Below are positions 3,171 through 54,043 of a DNA stretch of 64,000 bases, piece after piece. The translations under genes and the position numbers were made by a program. Within the stretch, counting starts at the first letter, position 1. The number at the start of each line of letters is the position of its first letter. This DNA comes from an uncultured bacterium. GTDB lineage: Bacteria; Hydrogenedentota; Hydrogenedentia; Hydrogenedentales; Hydrogenedentaceae. The stretch is taken from positions 12,338-76,337 of the forward strand of contig CAKZKR010000109.1 in NCBI GenBank assembly GCA_937124615.1, in the 5' to 3' direction. Below the pieces are notes generated by a model. It was not told where the DNA came from, made no database searches, and saw only the letters and a list, made by a program, of their open reading frames with translations.

Positions 3171-3974
3171 ATGCAATGGTTGTATCAGGAATATTGGAAA
3201 AAGAAAAAAGATTCGAGAAGAATTCGCAAAGCGTTTTTTTTCTCGATACTTATACATATTATTATTTTTGTTCCTTTCTATTTTTACAAAATCAGAACTC
3301 CAGAACCAATACCATTAGTGTTCCAGGTTTCCTTGGAGAATCCGGTGCCGGATAAGCCGATAACACAGGAGCCTCCACCGGAACCTCCTAAGCCCGAACC
3401 TCCAAAACCGGAACCCCCCAAACCCGAACCTCCTAAGCCGGAACCACCGAAACCGGAACCCCCCAAGCCGGAACCTCCGAAACCCGAACCCCCGAAACCC
3501 AAACCGAAACCGAAGCCCGAAAAAAAAATACCTGAAGAAAAACCCAAAGAAAAACCCGAACCCCCAAAACCAAAACCCGAACCCAAAAAGGAACAGCCAC
3601 CTCCAAAGGAACAGAAACCAACCCCAAAGCAGGAAGTTCCCCCAGTGCCCTCTGCCCCTAAAGCACAGGTTGCAAATCCTTTGCCACCTGAACTAGAATG
3701 GTGGGCAAGACAAGTGCAAAGGAAGATAGAGTATACATGGGTTGTTCCAAGTGGGATAAAGATAGACAATGAGAATAATGTTGCAGAAGTATCTTTCTGG
3801 GTGAATAGAAATGGGGAACTTCTTGAGCAACCTGTAGTTACTAAGGAAGCCAGCGACCCGGAATTAGGAGAATCTGGAGTAAGAGCAATCCTTCTTGCCG
3901 CTCCTTTTCCTCGTTTTCCCGATGGGTTTAATAAAGATGAGCAACTTGTGGTTTATGCTTTTTCTTTAGAGTAG
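3171..3974 (+). CDS. TonB/TolA-family energy transducer (N-terminal TM anchor, Pro-rich spacer, TonB_C-like C-terminus)
   Basis: N-terminal hydrophobic helix (FFFSILIHIIIFVPFYFY), then (PEPPK)n repeats, then a C-terminal segment (NGELLEQPVVTKEASDPELGESGVRAILLAAPFPRFPDG) like a TonB C-terminal domain. Lies immediately upstream of tolB. Confidence 0.65.
   Translation: MQWLYQEYWKKKKDSRRIRKAFFFSILIHIIIFVPFYFYKIRTPEPIPLVFQVSLENPVPDKPITQEPPPEPPKPEPPKPEPPKPEPPKPEPPKPEPPKPEPPKPEPPKPKPKPKPEKKIPEEKPKEKPEPPKPKPEPKKEQPPPKEQKPTPKQEVPPVPSAPKAQVANPLPPELEWWARQVQRKIEYTWVVPSGIKIDNENNVAEVSFWVNRNGELLEQPVVTKEASDPELGESGVRAILLAAPFPRFPDGFNKDEQLVVYAFSLE
3358..3505. repeat. Tandem 15-nt repeat encoding (PEPPK)x~9 followed by (PK)n inside the tonB/tolA-like gene
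   Basis: Near-perfect 15-bp units ccgaaaccggaaccc / ccgaacctcctaagc read directly in the sequence. The antisense ORF 3284..3769 (G/S-rich) is a shadow of this repeat. Confidence 0.85.
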
Positions 3975-4070
3975 CTTAATAAGGGAAATAGTAGTAACAT
4001 GCTTGTAAATGTAAGTGGTATTTATTTTTGGTTATAATAATATCGAATTTTTTAGATAGAAGTAAAGGAG

Positions 4071-5408
4071 TTGAAAATGGTAAAGAAACAACTATGTATT
4101 ATTGTGTTTTTTTCTTTTTTAACATTTGGTTTAATATCAGAAGTTGTTGCTCAGGATGCCATTCGTATCCAGTCCGTAAGAGGAATTGATAAAAGGATTT
4201 TAATTGCGGTTCCTCCTTTCTGTCCTGATACTCCGGATTTGAGCGGTGTTGCGGTGGAGTTATCGGAGGTAATGGCTTATGACTTGGAGTTTTCGGGGCT
4301 ATTTATTTTGTTGCCACGGGAACGCTATCCTGTTGGATTTGTTACATTGGAAAAAGATGTTGCCAGCATTAATTTTGATGCATGGCGTACTACGAAGGCA
4401 GAGTTTTTGTTATATGGTCTTGTGAAAAGAGATGGTGGAAAATATGTCTGTCAGTTTCGCTTATTAGACCTTATTTCAAGTAATCAGGTCGTTGGAAAAG
4501 AAGTTCGTGTTGATGTATCAAATGCGCGTTTGGCATCGCATCGTTTTTCTGAAGAAGTAATTGCTTTTGTTGATGGAATTCCGGGTGTAGGGACAAGTCA
4601 GATTTGCTTTACTGGGATAGTCGGTAAGAATAAAGAATTGTTTATTGCAGATTATGATGGTGCGAATATAAAACAGATTACGGAACATGGCTCTATCTCA
4701 ATAAAACCGAAGGTCTCTCCGGATGGGATGAAAATTGCCTATCTATCATATAAAGACCGTTATTCCTTCTTGTATATTTTTGACCGTCTAACGGGAAAGG
4801 TTACTCCACTATCAAAAGAAGTGGGGCTGAATTCGGCTCCTTCATGGTTTCCTGAGGGGAATCGGCTGGCAATGACTTTGAGTAAAGACGCGAATATGGA
4901 GATTTATATACGAAATATTGATGGAAGCAATCCTATTCGCATTACGAAAAATAAGGATGCGGACACATCTCCCTGTATTTTAGCGGATGGTTCAAGAATA
5001 GCATTTGTAAGTGACAGGGGGGGCAACCCTCAAATTTATGTTATGGGTGTCGATGGGAGTGACCCGCGTCGTGTTTCTTATCAGGGAGGTAATTCATACG
5101 ACCCTGCAGGGTCTCCTGATGGAAAAATGATTGCCTATGTTGTAGAACAAAGAGGTGAAGGTTTTGAAATATATGTAATGGATGCGGATGGTTCTAATCC
5201 TCGAAGATTAACCAATTCTTATGGAAGTAACGAGTCTCCGACATGGTCACCGGATTCTCGACATGTAATGTTTTGTTCTACCCGAAATGGAAGATGGGAA
5301 TTATGGACGGTCAATGTAAAAACGGGAGAAGAACGAAGAGTCCCGAATTTGAGAATGGAATGTCAAGGACCTTCGTGGGGGCCCCGAATGCAAACGGAAA
5401 ACAAATAA
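4071..5408 (+). CDS. tolB: Tol-Pal system beta-propeller protein TolB
   Basis: Signal peptide, TolB N-terminal domain, then repeated WD40-like/PD40 blades (ISPDGxxIAY, SWSPDGxxLAF motifs). 445 aa, typical TolB length. Confidence 0.85.
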   Translation: MKMVKKQLCIIVFFSFLTFGLISEVVAQDAIRIQSVRGIDKRILIAVPPFCPDTPDLSGVAVELSEVMAYDLEFSGLFILLPRERYPVGFVTLEKDVASINFDAWRTTKAEFLLYGLVKRDGGKYVCQFRLLDLISSNQVVGKEVRVDVSNARLASHRFSEEVIAFVDGIPGVGTSQICFTGIVGKNKELFIADYDGANIKQITEHGSISIKPKVSPDGMKIAYLSYKDRYSFLYIFDRLTGKVTPLSKEVGLNSAPSWFPEGNRLAMTLSKDANMEIYIRNIDGSNPIRITKNKDADTSPCILADGSRIAFVSDRGGNPQIYVMGVDGSDPRRVSYQGGNSYDPAGSPDGKMIAYVVEQRGEGFEIYVMDADGSNPRRLTNSYGSNESPTWSPDSRHVMFCSTRNGRWELWTVNVKTGEERRVPNLRMECQGPSWGPRMQTENK

Positions 5409-5448
5409 GATATTTTTAAGAAAGTGTAAATTAAGAAAGGTCTGATTT

Positions 5449-5916
5449 ATGCCACGGCATAGTGGAGAAAAGTTAATTGTTCAAAATCGGAGGGCTCATT
5501 TTGATTATGAAATATTTGAGCGATATGAATCGGGGGTAGTATTAAAAGGTACGGAAGTGAAATCATTGCGGACTTCAGGGAGTATGTCGATACAGGATGC
5601 GTATGTGGATTACGAAGAAGGAGAGTTGTTTCTTGTGAATTCGTATATTCGCCCTTATGAGCAAGGTAATATTCTAAATCATGACCCGCACCGGAAGAGG
5701 AAACTGCTATTACATAAACGGGAGATTGTTCGTCTTGGGAAAAGAGTTGAGGAAAAGGGGTTGACTTTAATCCCTTTGCGTGTATATTTCAAAAATGGTT
5801 TGGTAAAAATCGAGATTGGATTGGGTCGTGGTAAGAAGGTAATTGATAAACGAGAAGATATAAAAAAGAAAGATACACAAAGAGAGATAGAAAGAGTTAT
5901 AAAAAGATATCGATAA
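5449..5916 (+). CDS. smpB: SsrA-binding protein SmpB
   Basis: 155 aa. N-terminus IVQNRRAHFDYEIFERYESGVVLKGTEVKSLR is the canonical SmpB signature, with a basic C-terminal tail. Confidence 0.9.
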   Translation: MPRHSGEKLIVQNRRAHFDYEIFERYESGVVLKGTEVKSLRTSGSMSIQDAYVDYEEGELFLVNSYIRPYEQGNILNHDPHRKRKLLLHKREIVRLGKRVEEKGLTLIPLRVYFKNGLVKIEIGLGRGKKVIDKREDIKKKDTQREIERVIKRYR

Positions 5917-5969
5917 ATACTCGTTTTATATTAAGAAATGTGTTATATAATTAGGTTGAGGTAACTACT

Positions 5970-6350
5970 ATGGAAATACAAGAACAGAAAAGAACAAATC
6001 CAATTAAATGGGAACCCAAGGATTTTTGGGCACAATATATTGGAGCAATGACTCCATCTGCTTTTCTGAAGATTTCTGGGGTTTATAGTCCTTATAGAGC
6101 GGTTGAAAAGCATCTGAGGAAATTATCCACTTTTTATGGTATTGTTAGGCGAAACACATGGAAGGATACCTTTTCGGGACCTTTACAATTTAATTATGAG
6201 GAAGTATATTGGGGCGTTATTGCATACTTGAAAGAGACAGAAAATGAATGGAAACAGGAATGGAAAGAATTCTGGCTTGCCCAAGATGATGATGACCCAT
6301 TGAGCATTGACAAACAGTCTTCTAAGTCGATGGAAAACCAAACACAATAA
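5970..6350 (+). CDS. Hypothetical protein (126 aa, acidic C-terminus)
   Basis: ORF with good coding periodicity and no recognisable motif. Confidence 0.4.
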   Translation: MEIQEQKRTNPIKWEPKDFWAQYIGAMTPSAFLKISGVYSPYRAVEKHLRKLSTFYGIVRRNTWKDTFSGPLQFNYEEVYWGVIAYLKETENEWKQEWKEFWLAQDDDDPLSIDKQSSKSMENQTQ

Positions 6351-6365
6351 AGTAATAACCTTGAA

Positions 6366-7094
6366 ATGAGTCGTCAACGACATCGTGGAAAGAACCCGGA
6401 AGACGATAAACTATTTAACCCACAACAAATGGTATTGCTAAGAAGTGCCGTAGAGGACCTTTCTTATCTATATACGAGAGGTTATTCTGAAAAGATAGCA
6501 TTGAAGATTGTTGGAGACCATTATCAATTAAAAGGTCGACAAAGGCTTGCAATACAAAGGGCCGTATGTTCCGATGCTTCTCTGGATATACGGAGAAAGA
6601 GTGAGGTAGGGGGGAATTTAAATAAGGGCGAACGATTTCTTATAGATGGATATAATATATTGATTACGGTTGAGAGTTTGCTTTCCGGAGGAGTGTTAAT
6701 TTGCGGAAGAGATGGATGTATTCGTGATATAGCCGGTTTGCATGGGAGTTACCGTCGAGTTGAGGAGACAATCCCTGCTATTGAATGGATTGGTAAAAAT
6801 CTGTCTGTTTTTGAACCTTTGGAAGTATGGTGGTTTTTAGATAAACCCATTTCAAATAGTAAAAGGTTATCTTATTTGTTAAAAGAAATTTCAAATAAAC
6901 ATGACTGGAAATGGGAAATCAAAGTGGTAGATAATCCCGATTATGAAATTGTAAATGAAGAAGGAATTGTAATTTCTTCGGATAGTTGGATTCTTGATAG
7001 AGTTTTTCACTGGTTCAACTTTGTATCTCGTAATATAAAACCTCGTTGGAACAGAGAATATATACTTGATTTTTCGGTAGAGAGGAACAAATAA
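6366..7094 (+). CDS. Hypothetical protein with possible NYN/PIN-like nuclease fold (YacP-like DGYN motif)
   Basis: 242 aa. RFLIDGYNILITVESLL resembles the LLVDGYNV strand motif of YacP/Rae1 NYN domains. This is a weak inference. Confidence 0.35.
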   Translation: MSRQRHRGKNPEDDKLFNPQQMVLLRSAVEDLSYLYTRGYSEKIALKIVGDHYQLKGRQRLAIQRAVCSDASLDIRRKSEVGGNLNKGERFLIDGYNILITVESLLSGGVLICGRDGCIRDIAGLHGSYRRVEETIPAIEWIGKNLSVFEPLEVWWFLDKPISNSKRLSYLLKEISNKHDWKWEIKVVDNPDYEIVNEEGIVISSDSWILDRVFHWFNFVSRNIKPRWNREYILDFSVERNK

Positions 7095-7102
7095 AGGACG
7101 AA

Positions 7103-7789
7103 TTAAAAATACTTTTTTAAACTCTTAATAATTGTATTGATATTATATGGTTTTGATAGGAATCCTTGAATGAAAAAATCTACATCATTTTTATTAACAG
7201 AATGTTTTGAAAATCCTGAACTGAGGAAAATAGGCAGATCCGGAAGTTTTGAACGGATAATACGGGCGGTGTCAATTCCATCCAGGTGAGGCATGGTGAT
7301 GTCTAATATGACTGCTGATAGTTCTTTTTGATATTTTTCAAAGAGTTGTAAAGCCTCACGCCCATCTTTTGCTGTAATTACATCCAAACCCAGTTTTTCA
7401 AGCATTTTTGCTGTAACCTGTAGAACAACAGGTTCATCATCGGCTAATAGAATCAAACCTTTTCCTTTCCATGGAGTTGTATCTTCAACTTCTTGTTGTT
7501 TTTCATGAATGTCTGTTGTGGTAGGGAAAAATAATTTAAATGTAGTACCTTTACCAACCTCGCTATAAACTTTTATAGTTCCATGATGAGCCCGGAGAAT
7601 TCCCATAATTGTAGATAAACCTAAACCTCTACCGTATTCTTTTGTTGTAAAAAACGGGTCAAATATTTTTGACATTGTTTCCGGAGACATACCACAACCA
7701 TTGTCGGAGACCTCAAGAAAGACATACTTTTTGGCCTCTATTTTTTTCCTGGAACCATGTTGTTCGTATAAAGCTTTCTGTAAAATCAA
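7103..7789 (-). CDS. Hybrid sensor histidine kinase, C-terminal part (HATPase G1/G2 boxes plus CheY-like receiver domain), continuation of 7713..9755 in another frame
   Basis: VSDNGCGM (G1) and GRGLGLS (G2) are followed by the receiver LILLADDEPVVL...ILDITMPHLDG. The two ORFs are joined across the homopolymer at 7741-7747. Confidence 0.8.
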   Translation of the reverse strand: MILQKALYEQHGSRKKIEAKKYVFLEVSDNGCGMSPETMSKIFDPFFTTKEYGRGLGLSTIMGILRAHHGTIKVYSEVGKGTTFKLFFPTTTDIHEKQQEVEDTTPWKGKGLILLADDEPVVLQVTAKMLEKLGLDVITAKDGREALQLFEKYQKELSAVILDITMPHLDGIDTARIIRSKLPDLPIFLSSGFSKHSVNKNDVDFFIQGFLSKPYNINTIIKSLKKYF

Positions 7790-9755
7790 TGGTCCCTGTT
7801 CTGATACAAATCACTCCGCTCCGATTTTCTATGGCATCTGATGCATTGATAACAAGGTTTAAGATAATTGAGCGAAGTTGATTTGTTTCTCCATCGATAA
7901 AAGGTAAATGATTTTCAATGTCTATCTGTAGCACTATTTTTTTTGAGATACTAACTTTAAGTAAATGTTCCATTTCTAAAATTAATTGATTTAAATTGCA
8001 AGGTTGATGAGGTTGTTGTTTTTTCCCTGCGAAGATGAGTAATTGTCGGCATAATTCCCCTGCACTTTTTATTGCCTCCTCAATGTTTAGTAGATAGTTC
8101 TTAATAGTATACGGATTGTTTATCTCTTCTTTTGCCAATTCGGAGTATCCCATGACGGCCATAAGAATATTGTTGAAATCGTGAGCAATAGAACTTGAGA
8201 GTATGCCCAAACTTTCTAATTTCTGTGTGTGTTGAAGTTGTTCTTGTAGTTGTTCTTTTTCTTTTTCAAATTTTTTTATTTCAGAAATATCTCTAAATAG
8301 GAGAAGATATAATGGGCTTCTGTTCGTAAAGTGGATTAAACGGTGGATTAGTCGTAAGTTTAAGTAATTCCCAAATTTATCTTTTTCTTCGATTTCGATT
8401 TCTGATGAGGGATGCGTATCTTTGCATTTAGATATATGGTTACTAATTGCAGGAATAAAACGATGGATAGGTTTGGATAGGACCTCATCAATTTTCCATT
8501 TCAAAATATCTTCACTTACTTTATTCCAGAATTCAATATTTTCTTCCTTGTTAAACGCAATTATTCCTATAGGGGCAGAGTCGATAAGTGTTTTTAATAA
8601 GGACATGGTTTCGTTTAATGTATTTATGAGGGATTTAAGATCTGTAATATCTTCATATATGCCTAAAACACCATAAGGAATATCCCTGGGTCCCATAAGT
8701 GGTATCTTGCTCGTTCTTAACCAAATCTGTTGGCCGTCTGGGGTTGTTTGGGGTTCTTCATAAAACATTTTTGATTTTCCCGAAGTAATTACTTTTTGGT
8801 CATCTTTTCTGTATAGTTCTGCTTCTGATTTCCATGGTAGTTGGTAATCTGTGGTTCCAATTACTTCGTCAGGACTATTTTTCCCCGCATCTTTAGCGAA
8901 AGCAAGGTTACACCCTAAATAATGTAGGCCTGTGTCTTTCCAGAATACACGGACTGGTAGCAAATCCATAATAATCTTAATGAGATTCCGTGCCTGTTCT
9001 GCTTCTTTTGTTTTTCTCTCTTTTTCATCTAAATTCTCTATATGAACGAGAAAACCATAGATAGATTCTGCTTCATCTCCAGAAATTGGGAAGAGATTTA
9101 CAAGAGCCTGAAAAGGGGACCGGTCTTTCTTTAAATATAATTTTTGAAAAGTAATAACTTTATTAAATAGTAATGTTGGTTTCTTTATTGCTTCTTGAAA
9201 AAGAGTCAGTTCCTGATCGAGATTTTCAGTGCATGTTAGTTCTTGCCAGGTAAGTTTTAATAGTTCGTTTTTCTTGTAACCAAATAGTGAACATAGAGCA
9301 GGATTGGCCTCTATCCAGTAACCTGCAATATTTGTGATTCCTATGGGAATATTTATTTTTTGGAAGAAATCATATAGGAGAGGATTTTGGGTCAATATAT
9401 CTGTGCTTTTAGGTAATAGTTCCGTATAATCATATAGAGTGAAGGTATATTTTTCTGGGTCCGGTATTTTTTGTGATTTAGTAATTATACACCAGAAATA
9501 TTTGTTTCTTTTGTTGTTAAACCATATTCCTATATGATTTTTTGAATTAATATTGTCGGGATTTTTTATACAATACTGGAAAAAATCTTCAATAATCTTT
9601 TTTTGAGGTTCAAATACCCAATCCGTAAGAAGAGTCCCTTTAAATTCTTCTAAATTTAAACTTAGAAAATCAGACTCATCTGTGATAATCTGTTGAATCT
9701 CTCCCACTTCATCTAATTTAATAAGACATTCTTTAGGGAATAATGTATTTTTCAC
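7713..9755 (-). CDS. Hybrid sensor histidine kinase, N-terminal part (PAS/PAC domains, HisKA H-box, HATPase N-box), ending prematurely by frameshift
   Basis: H-box ESLGILSSSIAHDFNNILMAVMGYSELA and N-box LNLVINASDAIENRSG are present. There are multiple PAS-like segments and no TM helix. The ORF stops just after the N-box. Confidence 0.8.
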   Translation of the reverse strand: MKNTLFPKECLIKLDEVGEIQQIITDESDFLSLNLEEFKGTLLTDWVFEPQKKIIEDFFQYCIKNPDNINSKNHIGIWFNNKRNKYFWCIITKSQKIPDPEKYTFTLYDYTELLPKSTDILTQNPLLYDFFQKINIPIGITNIAGYWIEANPALCSLFGYKKNELLKLTWQELTCTENLDQELTLFQEAIKKPTLLFNKVITFQKLYLKKDRSPFQALVNLFPISGDEAESIYGFLVHIENLDEKERKTKEAEQARNLIKIIMDLLPVRVFWKDTGLHYLGCNLAFAKDAGKNSPDEVIGTTDYQLPWKSEAELYRKDDQKVITSGKSKMFYEEPQTTPDGQQIWLRTSKIPLMGPRDIPYGVLGIYEDITDLKSLINTLNETMSLLKTLIDSAPIGIIAFNKEENIEFWNKVSEDILKWKIDEVLSKPIHRFIPAISNHISKCKDTHPSSEIEIEEKDKFGNYLNLRLIHRLIHFTNRSPLYLLLFRDISEIKKFEKEKEQLQEQLQHTQKLESLGILSSSIAHDFNNILMAVMGYSELAKEEINNPYTIKNYLLNIEEAIKSAGELCRQLLIFAGKKQQPHQPCNLNQLILEMEHLLKVSISKKIVLQIDIENHLPFIDGETNQLRSIILNLVINASDAIENRSGVICIRTGTIDFTESFIRTTWFQEKNRGQKVCLS

Positions 9756-12679: not shown

Positions 12680-13067
12680 CTTATGTCCTTTTCAAAATAG
12701 GTGGGATTTTAACATAAATTAAGATAATAGTTAGATACAAAATATTCAAGAATAGTTTCAATAACTTTTAGTTTCTGAATAAATAAAGAAGGTAGATATT
12801 AAGGAATTACATAATAAGATTAAATACATTATCTGATGACTTTGAAGAAGTAGAAATATGAACATGGTTTTATTGAGTAAGAGAGGATGATATTAATTAA
12901 ATATTTGTATACGGTTAGAATTTATTTATAAGGCTGTTGTATGGAATTTGTTTTCGTATCTATCCAATAATTTAATTATTGAAATAATAAAATTTGAGTT
13001 AAAGGAACAAAGTTCGTGTTAATAAAAATAAAAAACATATAATGATTATATATCTTTTAAAAAAGGT

Positions 13068-13232
13068 GCGCACGGGCATTTCTATCGGAACAGGCATAGG
13101 AGGGGGGATAGGAGCCCGTGCGCTGGGGAGGGTACTGTGCAGGGTAGTGAGGGCTGTGTGTGTGGTAATAATTATTGTTTGTACCTGTGGTCTGGGTTGG
13201 GAGGAAGGCCAGATATAGCAGGGCCAAGTTTT
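13068..13232. ncRNA. Candidate structured small RNA or regulatory element (GC-rich island in an AT-rich spacer), strand unresolved
   Basis: A perfect 10-bp inverted repeat GCGCACGGGC...GCCCGTGCGC encloses ATAGGAG-GGGGG-ATAGGAG. On the + strand it is flanked by A6 (a U-tract on the minus strand) and followed by a G-rich stretch with multiple GGA/GGGAGG motifs. Confidence 0.3.
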
Positions 13233-13645
13233 TGTAAACTTACCTCACTTTCCTCACAGGAAAACTATTCAATTTTAATAGAACTTATTCCTAATTTATT
13301 TATACTATGAACGCCTTAAAAGTTTCAAAAGTTTACAAATTTTTTTGTGTAAAAATCTATAAAAAACAATTTATATAAATTGTTAATTACCTTTCACCCA
13401 ATATTATAACATAAAAAAGTTATAAAATCAAATTTATTAACAAAAAATTACATATCAATTATAATAAAATAATTTGGATATTTATTATATAAAATTTCTG
13501 TATACTTATATGAGAATAAAAGACCGATTTATAAAGCGAATAAAGAAGAACTTAATGTAAAATAAAATAAGAAAATGATGGAAATTAAAACAAGGGTGTT
13601 TTTTATTATAAAAATATAAATGTTTACAATAAAGAGTTAATTAAG

Positions 13646-21556: not shown

Positions 21557-21908
21557 AATTAAAACCTTACTCTAAATATGTTTATAATTTTATCTTATTT
21601 GCCTTTGTTTATCAAATGTATTTATCGCAGAAAATCTATTATCAAATACGATATTTTGTCAAAGATTATTTAATGAATACAGTTGGAATTTCTGAATCGA
21701 TTAGGAATCGTTCATAGAATTCCCCATTCTATATGAGAATATTATATTTTGATAGAATCTTTTTAGAAGTGCCTCCCTTTCAAAAATTGTAAAAACAATG
21801 CATTTTCTAAAATGATTTTATTTAAATTGACAGATGAAAAAAGTAGGAATGTTTTCAGGGACAAATCTCTTTCTTATCCAGAAGAGATGAATTACCCAGT
21901 TCTTGCAA

Positions 21909-23447: not shown

Positions 23448-23748
23448 CTCGCTTTCTATCGCAATTTAGGGTTTATAATTTATATATTAATAACGAAAAA
23501 AAAGAATAAAAAATTCTTTTTATGTTAATCTTATTTCTAAATACTTAGTAAACGAACCTCACTACCTTGTTGATATACACAGGTCCATTAGGTTGTCTAT
23601 ATATTTATACCATATTTAATCCTGAAAGTCAAGTAAAAATTCGATTAAAACAAAAAAACAATAAAATTTTATAAGTATTTTGTTGTCAATATCTTACGAA
23701 TAAAAAATTCCATTATAGCATTTTTTTTCTTTTTTATGGTTGATTTTT

Positions 23749-24619: not shown

Positions 24620-26578
24620 ATGCCAAATTATTCGAGAAGATTAAAACCGGCAAAGATAATTGTAGAAAGTTCTATCTCTGAAAATGAGAGTACTATTCCT
24701 GCTCCGTGGGATTGGGTGGGAAGAGGTAATTGGTGTTGGGGAATAGCCTCTTCTCCGATTCGGAGTAGATTTCATCTCGAATACCTAAAGAAGAAGGAAT
24801 TAACGCCTGTTATTACACCATTTTTAGCACATGTTGAAACAAGAAGTCGTTTTTATAAGGATAATAATAAAGAAGTTCCTGCCACTGCTGAATCCCTTGC
24901 AAGTTATTTTGAGACATTCGGAAACAACTTCATATGGGAAGGATTTACCGAGGAGGATTCTTCTGGAGTTGGATTTTCAAGAAGTTTTCTTGAAAATCCC
25001 CCCTGTTCTCACGAAGAAGCTAAAAGAAGGTTTGAACAATTCCTAAGGGAAGGGTTAGCAGAAATAAATAGATATGCTCCTGAAATTCATAAGTGGGGTC
25101 GGTGTGGTTATGCTAGTAGTGTGCACATTTATGCGAAACTTGGATTGGATGCAATATTGTTGGAACGAACTAATGATGATATTGATGATATACAAACGGG
25201 GATTGCATTTACTCGTGGTGCGGGAAAACAATATAATTGTTCCTGGGGTATCGATTTTTCTCTCTGGTGGGGTGTTTTTTACGGATGTGTGCAAGACTTA
25301 TCTACTTCATATCATAGAAGGAATTGGTTAATTTCTTATTTTTCAGGAGCGGATTATTTGGCTATTGAAGGGGGTGATTTGTTATGTTACCGAGATGGAA
25401 AATTATCACAAATGGGGGTTGATTTTGAAAATTTTTCTAAATGGATACAAAAAATTCCTCGTGGTATTCCTCTTGTCCCTGTTGCAGTTATTCTTCCATC
25501 AGATCATGGATGGATTTCTCCTCCATATTGGGAGACACAACAGTTCGCCTGGAATTATGCACGACTAAAGAGAAAACCGGGAGAGAGAGGTATTGATGGC
25601 TTCTTTTCAACAATTTTTCCGGGAAGTAATTTTGCAATGGACCCATTTCCTTTTGGAAATTATGAAGAAAACGACCCACCAGCAAGTCCTTTTGCTCTTT
25701 CCTGTATAACTCCTCGTTATGCTCCATTACCACAAAATGTTTTTTACAGCAAATCCTATATTCCATTTGGAAAATATAAGGATCGAATTGAGGCGAATGA
25801 GTTTTTGAAGAATAATAAAATAGATATTTCTCCATATCGTCCGATGGGAGTCAGTCGTTGGGGTGATATTTTTGATGTATTTACGGAAAAGGTAGATGGA
25901 GAAATTCTAAAAAACTATAGAGTCCTCATTGTTTTGGGTCCTTTAATAATCAATGAAGAGATAAAACAAAAATTGATTGATTATATTTATAGCGGTGGTA
26001 CGGTTGTATGTTCAGCAGGAGCTATAGGACCGGATGACCATGATTGGACAGGAGTTCAAATGCTACCAGAACTTCATACGGGTTATCGGTGGAGGTGGGG
26101 AAAAGACAACTGGAATAACGAAGCGTTTCGATTTATTCCATCCAATGTGGATTCTGATTCAGAGGTGGTAGCATGGGCCAATAAAAATGCTCCTTTGATT
26201 GTGTATACGCATATAGGGAAAGGGAAGTTATATTTAGTTCTTAGCCCGTGGTTTGAAAGCGGTTCTGCTATTTTAATGGGTGCAGTAGTAAAGTTGCTCG
26301 ATACTCTTTTTTCGCCATTAATCCCGTTTAAAGTTTGTGGCCCTCCTTGTGAATGGTTGGTTACAGAAGATGAAGAATATCAAACGGTTTTGGTGGTAAA
26401 TCATGCGGACTTTTTATGGGAGGGTTTTATTGAGTATAAAGATAATTTTTTAGGTGAGAAAGAAGTCATAGAATTAATCAACGGGAACAGATACCCAATT
26501 GATAAGGATAATAAGATAAGTTTTATTATCCCTCCTTTTGAAGCGAATGTCTTTCAATTTTCAAAAAGACAATCTTAA
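24620..26578 (+). CDS. Large hypothetical protein (652 aa), possibly glycoside-hydrolase-like with a GATase1-like/trimerisation-type domain
   Basis: No clear catalytic motif. The segment VLIVLGPLIINEEIKQKLIDYIYSGGTVV resembles the class-I glutamine-amidotransferase-like domain of GH42 beta-galactosidases. The call is weak. Confidence 0.35.
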   Translation: MPNYSRRLKPAKIIVESSISENESTIPAPWDWVGRGNWCWGIASSPIRSRFHLEYLKKKELTPVITPFLAHVETRSRFYKDNNKEVPATAESLASYFETFGNNFIWEGFTEEDSSGVGFSRSFLENPPCSHEEAKRRFEQFLREGLAEINRYAPEIHKWGRCGYASSVHIYAKLGLDAILLERTNDDIDDIQTGIAFTRGAGKQYNCSWGIDFSLWWGVFYGCVQDLSTSYHRRNWLISYFSGADYLAIEGGDLLCYRDGKLSQMGVDFENFSKWIQKIPRGIPLVPVAVILPSDHGWISPPYWETQQFAWNYARLKRKPGERGIDGFFSTIFPGSNFAMDPFPFGNYEENDPPASPFALSCITPRYAPLPQNVFYSKSYIPFGKYKDRIEANEFLKNNKIDISPYRPMGVSRWGDIFDVFTEKVDGEILKNYRVLIVLGPLIINEEIKQKLIDYIYSGGTVVCSAGAIGPDDHDWTGVQMLPELHTGYRWRWGKDNWNNEAFRFIPSNVDSDSEVVAWANKNAPLIVYTHIGKGKLYLVLSPWFESGSAILMGAVVKLLDTLFSPLIPFKVCGPPCEWLVTEDEEYQTVLVVNHADFLWEGFIEYKDNFLGEKEVIELINGNRYPIDKDNKISFIIPPFEANVFQFSKRQS

Positions 26579-53059: not shown

Positions 53060-54043
53060 ATGAAAAGGCGCACGCGGAAATCCGTGCGCAAGCACGAAAA
53101 AAAGTATGAATTTGAAGAAAAAACTCAAGAGACCCTTGATTTTTCTAAAATATCCGATGTGATTGTTTTACCTAAGACAGAAGTAAATGGTGTTCAATAT
53201 GAAATTTCAACAAGCCATCAGGGCGATTTATTGTTGCAGTTAAGAAAAGACCGGAATCGTTTCATTAAAACAATTATTTTTGCCCTAATTCTTCATCTTT
53301 CTGCAGTTACTCTCTTTAAAATTGTTGTGTATATACCACGCTCTGACCTTCAATACCTGGATATTCGTGTTATACAGACAGATATGGACAGTAGTCCCCA
53401 TTCCAATGTAGCATCTCGACTTAAGTTATCAAAGAACATGGAAAATGATGATGAAGATACAGAATTTAATATTAATGAATTAAAACAATCAAGTACTTTT
53501 GAACTTCCTAAAATTGAGTTTGAGGAATTAGAAAAACTTAGACTTCGTAGGACACTGGTAGAAGAAGAAGTATCCTCGAAAACTTTACCAGAGGAATATA
53601 AAGATAGTTGGGCTCAATTTGGAGCAGGAATCAATAGAATAAGAGAATCTATAAGTGCTTTAAGTCCATTTTCATCTACTATAGTCAAAGAAAATGGTGA
53701 TACTCCTAATGCTCCTTTAATAAGGCAAAATATAGGAAATGGTATTGAAATTGTTTTCCGCTGGATTAATCCTCCATATAACAGGTCTATTTTGTTTTTA
53801 CCAGGTTTGTTGGAAATGTCAAGGAAATCAATAATTGATGAAGAAAAAGATTATGATTTTATGCTAACAGTATTACCTGATGGAACAGTGTCGCGGGTAA
53901 TTGATTTGAACATTATTGAAGATGATCTATCAAAATATATTGAAGGAGAAATTAGTAAGATTCGTTTTGAACCTTTGATAAACGCTGATTCTGGAGAACA
54001 ACAGGTAACTATTCGTTATCATATATCCGGAGTCATACTATGA
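53060..54043 (+). CDS. TonB/TolA-like protein (single TM anchor, acidic linker, putative TonB_C-like C-terminus)
   Basis: The TM helix IIFALILHLSAVTLFKIVVYI lies ~70 aa from the N-terminus. Gene position after exbB-exbD. The C-terminal fold assignment is tentative. Confidence 0.45.
   Translation: MKRRTRKSVRKHEKKYEFEEKTQETLDFSKISDVIVLPKTEVNGVQYEISTSHQGDLLLQLRKDRNRFIKTIIFALILHLSAVTLFKIVVYIPRSDLQYLDIRVIQTDMDSSPHSNVASRLKLSKNMENDDEDTEFNINELKQSSTFELPKIEFEELEKLRLRRTLVEEEVSSKTLPEEYKDSWAQFGAGINRIRESISALSPFSSTIVKENGDTPNAPLIRQNIGNGIEIVFRWINPPYNRSILFLPGLLEMSRKSIIDEEKDYDFMLTVLPDGTVSRVIDLNIIEDDLSKYIEGEISKIRFEPLINADSGEQQVTIRYHISGVIL

Follow-up and report, generated by a model that had tools for sequence, protein, structure and literature searches.

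Do two overlapping open reading frames (ORFs) in an uncultured bacterium of the Hydrogenedentota encode two proteins, or are they the halves of a single sensor kinase gene parted by one nucleotide, and where would that nucleotide have come from? The ORFs lie on the minus strand at 7103..9755 of the stretch analysed here, 64,000 nucleotides (nt) of contig CAKZKR010000109.1 (assembly GCA_937124615.1), which we call the window. A first-pass annotation had proposed that one hybrid PAS-kinase/receiver gene is split here by a 1-nt homopolymer expansion, and had offered sequencing error, gene inactivation or phase variation as the cause. We find that the locus is a single, disrupted hybrid sensor histidine kinase gene, which encodes 883 amino acids (aa) after removal of one A and comprises three PAS domains, HisKA, HATPase_c and a receiver. 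Its extra A probably marks a real and recent slippage event, from A6 to A7, that inactivates a conserved kinase in some Candidatus Hydrogenedens strains.

A kinase gene interrupted at a run of seven adenines

The frameshift site is a homopolymer at 7741..7747 that reads T7 on the plus strand and A7 on the minus (sense) strand; intact alleles have A6. Around the break the sense strand reads TGG TTC CAG GAA AAA AAT AGA GGC CAA AAA GTA TGT CTT TCT TGA. The upstream ORF (7713..9755, minus strand, 680 aa, GTG start) encodes kinase residues 1-671 and ends in ...TTWFQEK, followed by nine out-of-frame residues (NRGQKVCLS) and a TGA at 7715..7713, ten codons past the A7 run. The downstream ORF (7103..7789, minus strand, 228 aa, TTG start at 7789) lies in the +1 frame and overlaps the upstream one by 77 nt. 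Its first 15 codons are out-of-frame filler; kinase residues 672-883 then occupy 7741 down to 7106, and the open frame carries ...KIEAKKYVFLEVSDNGCGM... up to the natural TAA stop at 7103-7105. When one A is deleted, a single 883-aa ORF results, which reads ...FIRTTWFQEKIEAKKYVFLEVSDNGCGM... across the junction.

Pfam scans were run on the repaired 883-aa protein and on the 680-aa and 228-aa ORFs alone. The catalytic ATP-binding domain, HATPase_c (residues 624-746, 7517..7886, minus strand), is complete in the repaired protein, matching profile positions 3-110 of 111 with 72.9 bits. The 680-aa ORF alone has no match to HATPase_c, and in the 228-aa ORF alone the match is limited to profile positions 22-110. 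Since neither fragment holds the whole of HATPase_c, one domain has been cut in two, between its N-box (7830-7859) and its G1 box DNGCG (7691-7705), with the F and G2 boxes also downstream of the tract. Alignment to the DHp-CA structure of CckA (PDB 5idj, E = 4.6e-37) confirms this placement of the break. A complete HATPase_c on the polypeptide that carries HisKA is absent from the window and present both after removal of one A and in two intact copies of the gene described below.

On either side of the cut lie the two phospho-acceptor domains. HisKA, the dimerisation/phospho-acceptor domain (residues 519-576, 8028..8201, minus strand), is present in the upstream ORF, scoring 27.6 bits against a Pfam cut-off of 26.9, and contains the H-box SIAHDFNN with His525 at 8181-8183. 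The receiver domain (residues 768-879, 7118..7453, minus strand; Response_reg, 72 bits) has its phospho-acceptor Asp818 at 7301-7303; its D772/D773, D818 and K868 are invariant, and in the window all of them lie in the downstream frame. On re-reading the sequence and its translation, we found the ORF coordinates, the T7 position, the motifs and the repaired peptide of the first-pass annotation all to be correct. Pfam and motif positions likewise agree with its assignment of the H-box and N-box to ORF 7713..9755 and of the G1/G2 boxes and receiver to ORF 7103..7789, and the continuous kinase that it expected on removal of one A was obtained with a complete HATPase_c.

Intact and broken alleles in near-identical assemblies

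A search with the repaired protein returned a protein of 883 aa (P0001, the same as P0122) at 100% identity and 100% query coverage, the single continuous hit that the first-pass annotation had suggested looking for. Such a match of a repaired ORF to a real protein is far beyond chance. The 90% cluster of this protein consists of four sequences, namely an 883-aa form from GEM, an 883-aa form from JGI/IMG, a 680-aa fragment and a 195-aa fragment, both fragments coming from NCBI, ENA and Logan. The 680-aa fragment is the upstream ORF, on record as P0121 in those three repositories, and the 195-aa fragment (P0123) is what gene callers obtain by starting the downstream part at an ATG (Met) inside the G1 box (DNGCG-M).

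The intact JGI form is found on two contigs from different, independent metagenomes, 3300025104 (kinase gene at 5758-8409) and 3300010288 (3592-6243), and is identical to the repaired protein. The 680-aa form is found on four contigs (NCBI, ENA and Logan), among them the 438-kb contig k141_120962 of ENA ERZ27245459, referred to below as the ENA contig. The window shares 99.97% DNA identity with each of these two JGI contigs and with the ENA contig; the tract is A6 in both JGI contigs and A7 in the ENA contig and the window, so that in-frame and out-of-frame lengths both occur among near-identical strains. Over 2.65 kb the broken allele is identical to the intact one except for the extra A, which argues that the A7 event is recent. 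Across the 13-21 kb overlap the kinase tract is the sole difference that alters a gene's structure, and in the 21.5 kb compared between the ENA contig and JGI 3300010288 it is the only indel. Scans of a metagenome contig collection with a DNA pattern made of the tract and its flank gave no match; the same pattern matches the window and the three contigs, and the collection apparently lacks these samples.

A single, conserved ORF in related species

The nearest homologues, some of them labelled Candidatus Hydrogenedens sp., share 53-74% identity with the repaired kinase. The full-length ones have 881-884 aa in a single ORF with the same domain set, and two others are partial (805 and 623 aa). 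The gene is a single ORF in all ten closest homologues and at six orthologous loci; the two-ORF structure that would have spoken against one gene was found in none of these orthologues. One reading frame runs across the break site in Ca. Hydrogenedens sp. KM4344-31 (L004), in an uncultured metagenome-assembled genome (MAG; L005), in Ca. H. terephthalaticus (L010) and in the genes of P0003 and P0004 (L093 and L094). The frameshift is not conserved and is confined to some strains of one species. Residues H525 (within SIAHDFNN), N637, D684/G686/G688, D818 and K868 are invariant in ten aligned proteins. The existence of an identical intact 883-aa allele, together with the single ORFs of the orthologues, proves the single-gene reading.

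The gene neighbourhood is shared as well. At L004, L005, L093 and L094 an aminotransferase gene is followed by the kinase gene and then by convergent genes for a DUF434/DUF5616 protein, a 126-aa protein, SmpB and TolB, and a metallophosphatase gene precedes the aminotransferase gene wherever the contig reaches that far. The draft genome of Ca. H. terephthalaticus (AWNW01000018.1, 138-8397) departs from this pattern: the kinase matches from residue 85 onward only, the aminotransferase gene was not found upstream of it in the locus, and the upstream block that runs from the metallophosphatase gene to fliM has the opposite relative orientation, from either a rearrangement or an assembly problem.

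The tract itself varies between species. Its codons are GAA AAA ATA in the intact allele of the window's species, GAA AAA ATT in L093 and GAA AAT ATT in L094; in L004, L005 and L010 they are GAA or GAG, then GGA, then ATA or ATT. Two of the six species (the window's and that of L093) therefore have A6 at the site, and the tract is not kept in orthologues. In-frame A/T runs of at least 6 nt number 7-16 per orthologue, at varying positions; these runs are a by-product of Lys-rich coding in a gene of 33-35% G+C.

Homopolymer lengths and variable sites around the kinase gene

The comparison with the ENA contig and the two JGI assemblies covered 55.9 kb of the window. The four sequences differ by 24 single-nucleotide polymorphisms (SNPs) and five indels. 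The window and the ENA contig are told apart by 9 of the SNPs and two of the indels, namely a T8/T9 run at 23721 and one of 1 nt at 21873, so that A7 is present in two different consensus sequences. Besides the kinase tract there are four indels, all intergenic: these two, of which the one at 21873 is not in a repeat, a T3/T4 difference at 21803 and, at 13340-13346, a T6/T7 run. Because the run at 23721 differs between the window and the ENA contig, they cannot be one consensus, nor is run length fixed by data source.

Length-variable A/T runs of at least 6 nt were rarer in coding than in intergenic sequence of the 55.9 kb (1/158 versus 2/22; Fisher p = 0.04), the other 157 coding runs having the same length across assemblies. 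None of the 35 coding runs of at least 7 nt, A8 and A9 included, differed between assemblies. This intergenic enrichment fits real polymorphism filtered by selection better than a technology prone to homopolymer errors, although the numbers are small. The kinase gene contains 13 A/T runs of at least 6 nt, and one A8 and two A7 runs among them are identical in every assembly. Relative to a first-order Markov model, the window has 209 A/T runs of at least 6 nt (182 +/- 13 expected) and 51 of at least 7 nt (68 +/- 6 expected), 40 of the 51 being coding. Same-strand ORF pairs with overlapping frames were also searched for other frameshifts, and pairs overlapping by about 50 nt or more were examined via their start codons. 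No other frameshifted gene was found in the 64-kb window: most pairs were ordinary junctions, and the Pfam-scanned pairs carried separate complete domains.

The variable sites group the four sequences in conflicting ways. SNPs 6331 and 22089 place the window with JGI 3300025104 and the ENA contig with JGI 3300010288, whereas SNP 54623 and the kinase tract place the window with the ENA contig and the two JGI assemblies together. The SNPs private to the window within the gene for a PMT_2 protein are synonymous. The conflicting groupings indicate either that coexisting strains have recombined or that the metagenome consensus sequences are chimeric. Site 6331 and the tract occur in all four combinations, which suggested a four-gamete argument that slippage recurs; it was considered and rejected. 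Ordinary SNPs are also mutually incompatible and 54623 shares the partition of the tract, and the apparent signal of recurrent switching fails because recombination or a chimeric consensus suffices to produce it. The SNP partitions neither require nor exclude recurrent switching.

A probable recent inactivating allele and its rivals

Starting from the observed anatomy of the break, the two alleles and the conserved intact gene, we infer that A7 is biological and that the truncated products are inactive. According to this model, replication slippage would have turned an ordinary lysine-codon A6 (GAA AAA ATA) into A7. Lys671 would then be the last residue translated in frame; it lies inside the ATP-binding domain, past the N-box and short of the G1 box, and ten codons further on translation would stop. 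The truncated, N-terminal product would keep the PAS sensors and HisKA but not the ATP lid, the receiver or the G1, F and G2 boxes. The downstream, C-terminal part would have neither the N-box nor the His domain, nor a convincing start signal of its own. With these elements parted, kinase and phosphorelay function would be lost; to go by its domains, the truncated protein would neither autophosphorylate nor relay phosphate. Both alleles would circulate among near-identical strains (99.97%) from different metagenomes, for which reason we regard A7 as a loss-of-function variant that arose recently and is segregating. The same slippage could in principle reverse it. The event is of a known kind, in a new organism.

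Several points weigh against this account. The A7 tract is known from assembly consensus sequences. The split between alleles tracks the data source, the JGI assemblies having A6 and the window and ENA contig A7, and SNP 54623 has the same partition. The two A7 assemblies could share overlapping read sets or a single platform, and the description of the ENA contig as a short-read assembly comes only from its MEGAHIT-style name. Metagenome consensus can moreover be chimeric, as the conflict of 6331 and 22089 with 54623 and the tract illustrates. Finally, the proposed inactivity of the truncated products is read from domain anatomy.

The most serious competitor, which we nevertheless consider unlikely, is a sequencing or assembly error, by which the gene is really intact in the organism, with A6, and a homopolymer miscall put the extra A into the consensus. 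An intact A6 allele does exist elsewhere at 99.97% identity, the kinase gene bears no other decay, A7 versus A6 follows data source (non-JGI versus JGI), and at 13340-13346 the window and the ENA contig likewise have the longer run and JGI 3300025104 the shorter. Single-base A/T-run changes that split an intact gene into two called coding sequences (CDSs) are familiar from MAGs as pseudogenes or artefacts. However, A7 recurs in two non-identical assemblies, on four contigs in three repositories; the contig name in one of these assemblies is of the MEGAHIT, short-read style, and short-read platforms seldom err in 7-nt runs. The constancy of the 35 coding runs of at least 7 nt also speaks against error. 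The recurrence of A7 and the failure to find another broken gene in 64 kb set this case apart from those MAG pseudogenes and artefacts, and the disagreement of the window and the ENA contig at 23721 (T8 versus T9) shows that run lengths are not simply platform-locked. An account with two genuine genes, whose products (PAS-HisKA and ATPase-fragment/receiver) would act together as separate proteins, can point to gene callers, which annotate CDSs of 680 aa and 195 aa. It has practically no probability left and is already contradicted: the cut falls inside a single HATPase_c fold, the 195-aa call begins at a Met within the G1 box, all relatives are fused and the two ORFs overlap out of frame. Programmed recoding, in which A7 would be normal and +1 ribosomal frameshifting, or transcriptional slippage on the A run, would yield the full-length kinase, is very improbable too. 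The confinement of A7 to a few strains is already an observation of the kind that refutes this reading. The run is slippery, and a +1 slip of tRNA-Lys on A-AAA-AAA-U would yield exactly ...QEKIEAKK..., but the frameshift occurs in no orthologue and an in-frame A6 allele exists within the same species. Moreover, the A-site codon AAU is neither slow nor a stop, and the Shine-Dalgarno-like AGGA is simply part of conserved Gln-Glu codons. No stimulatory signals for recoding were seen by sequence inspection, a dedicated structure search not having been done. Transcriptional slippage in A/T runs gives mainly +1 insertions, with deletions rarely tied to homopolymeric runs (PMC5574713). Since rescue of A7 needs -1 or +2, it should be poor by this route.

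An evolved phase-variable (contingency) regulator, in which the A6/A7 run is a selected, reversible ON/OFF switch, is more probable than recoding and still unlikely. Its closest precedent is bvgS of Bordetella pertussis, a hybrid sensor kinase gene that changes phase between a C6 (ON) and a C7 (OFF) run (Stibitz et al, 1989, summarised in PMC1891110), so that a change from 6 to 7 in such a gene is an established mechanism of phase variation. The resemblance is close, as both are hybrid sensor kinases with a coding homopolymer of 6 (ON) or 7 (OFF) in which one added nucleotide truncates the kinase, both alleles occur among otherwise near-identical bacteria, and the OFF allele here has no secondary decay. 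In contrast to the window's gene, bvgS has a C run and its switching was shown experimentally within cultures; the run studied here is an A/T run in a 36% G+C genome rich in such runs, is not conserved in orthologues and is known from consensus sequences. The site has GGA or AAT, and hence no run, in four of the six species, A/T runs are not over-represented (209 against 182 +/- 13; 51 against 68 +/- 6), and the gene has 13 such runs of which the longer A7 and A8 are invariant. SNP 54623 shares the partition of the tract, which simple descent can thus explain with no call on recurrent switching. A second precedent is less encouraging. In Campylobacter jejuni flgS/flgR, short A/T runs mutate often, and the mutations in runs below 7 nt are described as non-reversible, not as phase variation proper (Hendrixson, 2006, 2008; reviewed in PMC8355987). 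Those genes, like the kinase gene, are two-component genes in which frameshifts in A/T runs below 7 nt, at appreciable frequency, knock out the system; unlike it, they have a known target system (the flagellar sigma-54 regulon, motility) on which selection has been demonstrated. Among the features of phase variation, ON and OFF lengths in near-identical strains were found, and neither unusual run length or over-representation nor upkeep in orthologues was. An evolved switch is thus not supported, and simple reversibility by slippage is a possibility. That an orphan cytoplasmic PAS hybrid kinase of a free-living uncultured anaerobe of the Hydrogenedentota works as a reversible ON/OFF switch is something we hold to be improbable. 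If true, bvgS-style phase variation of a master sensor would not be confined to host-associated pathogens, and both phases would exist side by side in natural or bioreactor populations.

Of the three causes first proposed, gene inactivation is favoured, with A7 recurring in a second, non-identical assembly and no other broken gene found; phase variation as an evolved switch lost support on account of the short tract, its ordinary abundance and its absence from most orthologues; and sequencing error keeps a minor share of the probability. If the A7 tract is a segregating loss-of-function allele, Hydrogenedens populations contain strains that have lost a conserved sensor kinase alongside strains that keep it. 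If both lengths were present in one population, the locus would be an accessible case of on/off heterogeneity of a regulator in an uncultured phylum, although nothing in the sequence requires this. The 680-aa and 195-aa CDSs in databases are pieces of a single gene, and their annotation should say that the allele is frameshifted.

Sensor architecture of the kinase

Three PAS domains precede HisKA on the minus strand. The first is a PAS_9 domain (residues 138-233, 9057..9344), the second a PAS_4 domain (residues 265-374, 8634..8963), which is the most conserved block among orthologues, and the third a PAS/PAS_8 domain (residues 387-440, 8436..8597). No transmembrane segment was noticed in the N-terminal sequence on inspection by eye, with no predictor run, and no Hpt or partner regulator gene adjoins the kinase gene. 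The kinase is predicted to be a soluble, cytoplasmic orphan. CckA (PDB 5idj, 5idm) is the best solved-structure match to its DHp-CA core and shares with it the HDFNN H-box, the hybrid architecture and the C-terminal receiver. CckA belongs to a different phylum, and the likeness is at family level only, with no evidence of orthology.

A conserved non-coding element and other loci of the window

The window also contains a G+C-rich element of about 200 nt (13060-13260, plus strand) within the very AT-rich, 1.1-kb spacer that runs from the metallophosphatase gene to fliM. Copies are found in L010 (1662-1855), L005 (331-519, minus strand) and L004 (2755-2947, minus strand). The element has 93-94% DNA identity across four Hydrogenedens species, its flanks are unalignable and the neighbouring proteins are 66-95% identical. 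Interspecies differences include indels of 1, 2 and 4 nt, because of which we take the element not to be coding; a 58-aa ORF called on it is probably spurious, and an ORF at 13032-13310 (plus strand), which overlaps it, has no Pfam match. An Rfam scan of the whole window returned no family, and the element had no match even at E <= 10. Its plus strand folds to -60.9 kcal/mol (z = -2.3) with a 10-bp GGUGCGCACGGGC/GCCCGUGCGC stem. We regard the element as a candidate novel non-coding RNA, leader or regulatory element, and it may hold more lasting interest than the frameshift.

The run at 13340-13346 lies in the same spacer, roughly 80 nt beyond the element and roughly 450 nt before fliM, and is T7 in the window and the ENA contig and T6 in JGI 3300025104. 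SNPs 13382, 13545 and 13610 fall in this spacer too, which accordingly holds 4 of the 29 variable sites of the 56 kb. Another intergenic spacer, at 21803-21873, contains the T3/T4 indel, two SNPs and the 1-nt non-repeat indel; these variants are mostly private to JGI 3300025104, and the JGI 3300010288 contig ends there. The intergenic run at 23721-23728 is T8, with T9 in the ENA contig only. Lastly, two conserved plus-strand ORFs, at 24620-26578 (652 aa) and 53060-54043 (327 aa), have no Pfam domain on record or by scan and are present as identical copies in all assemblies.

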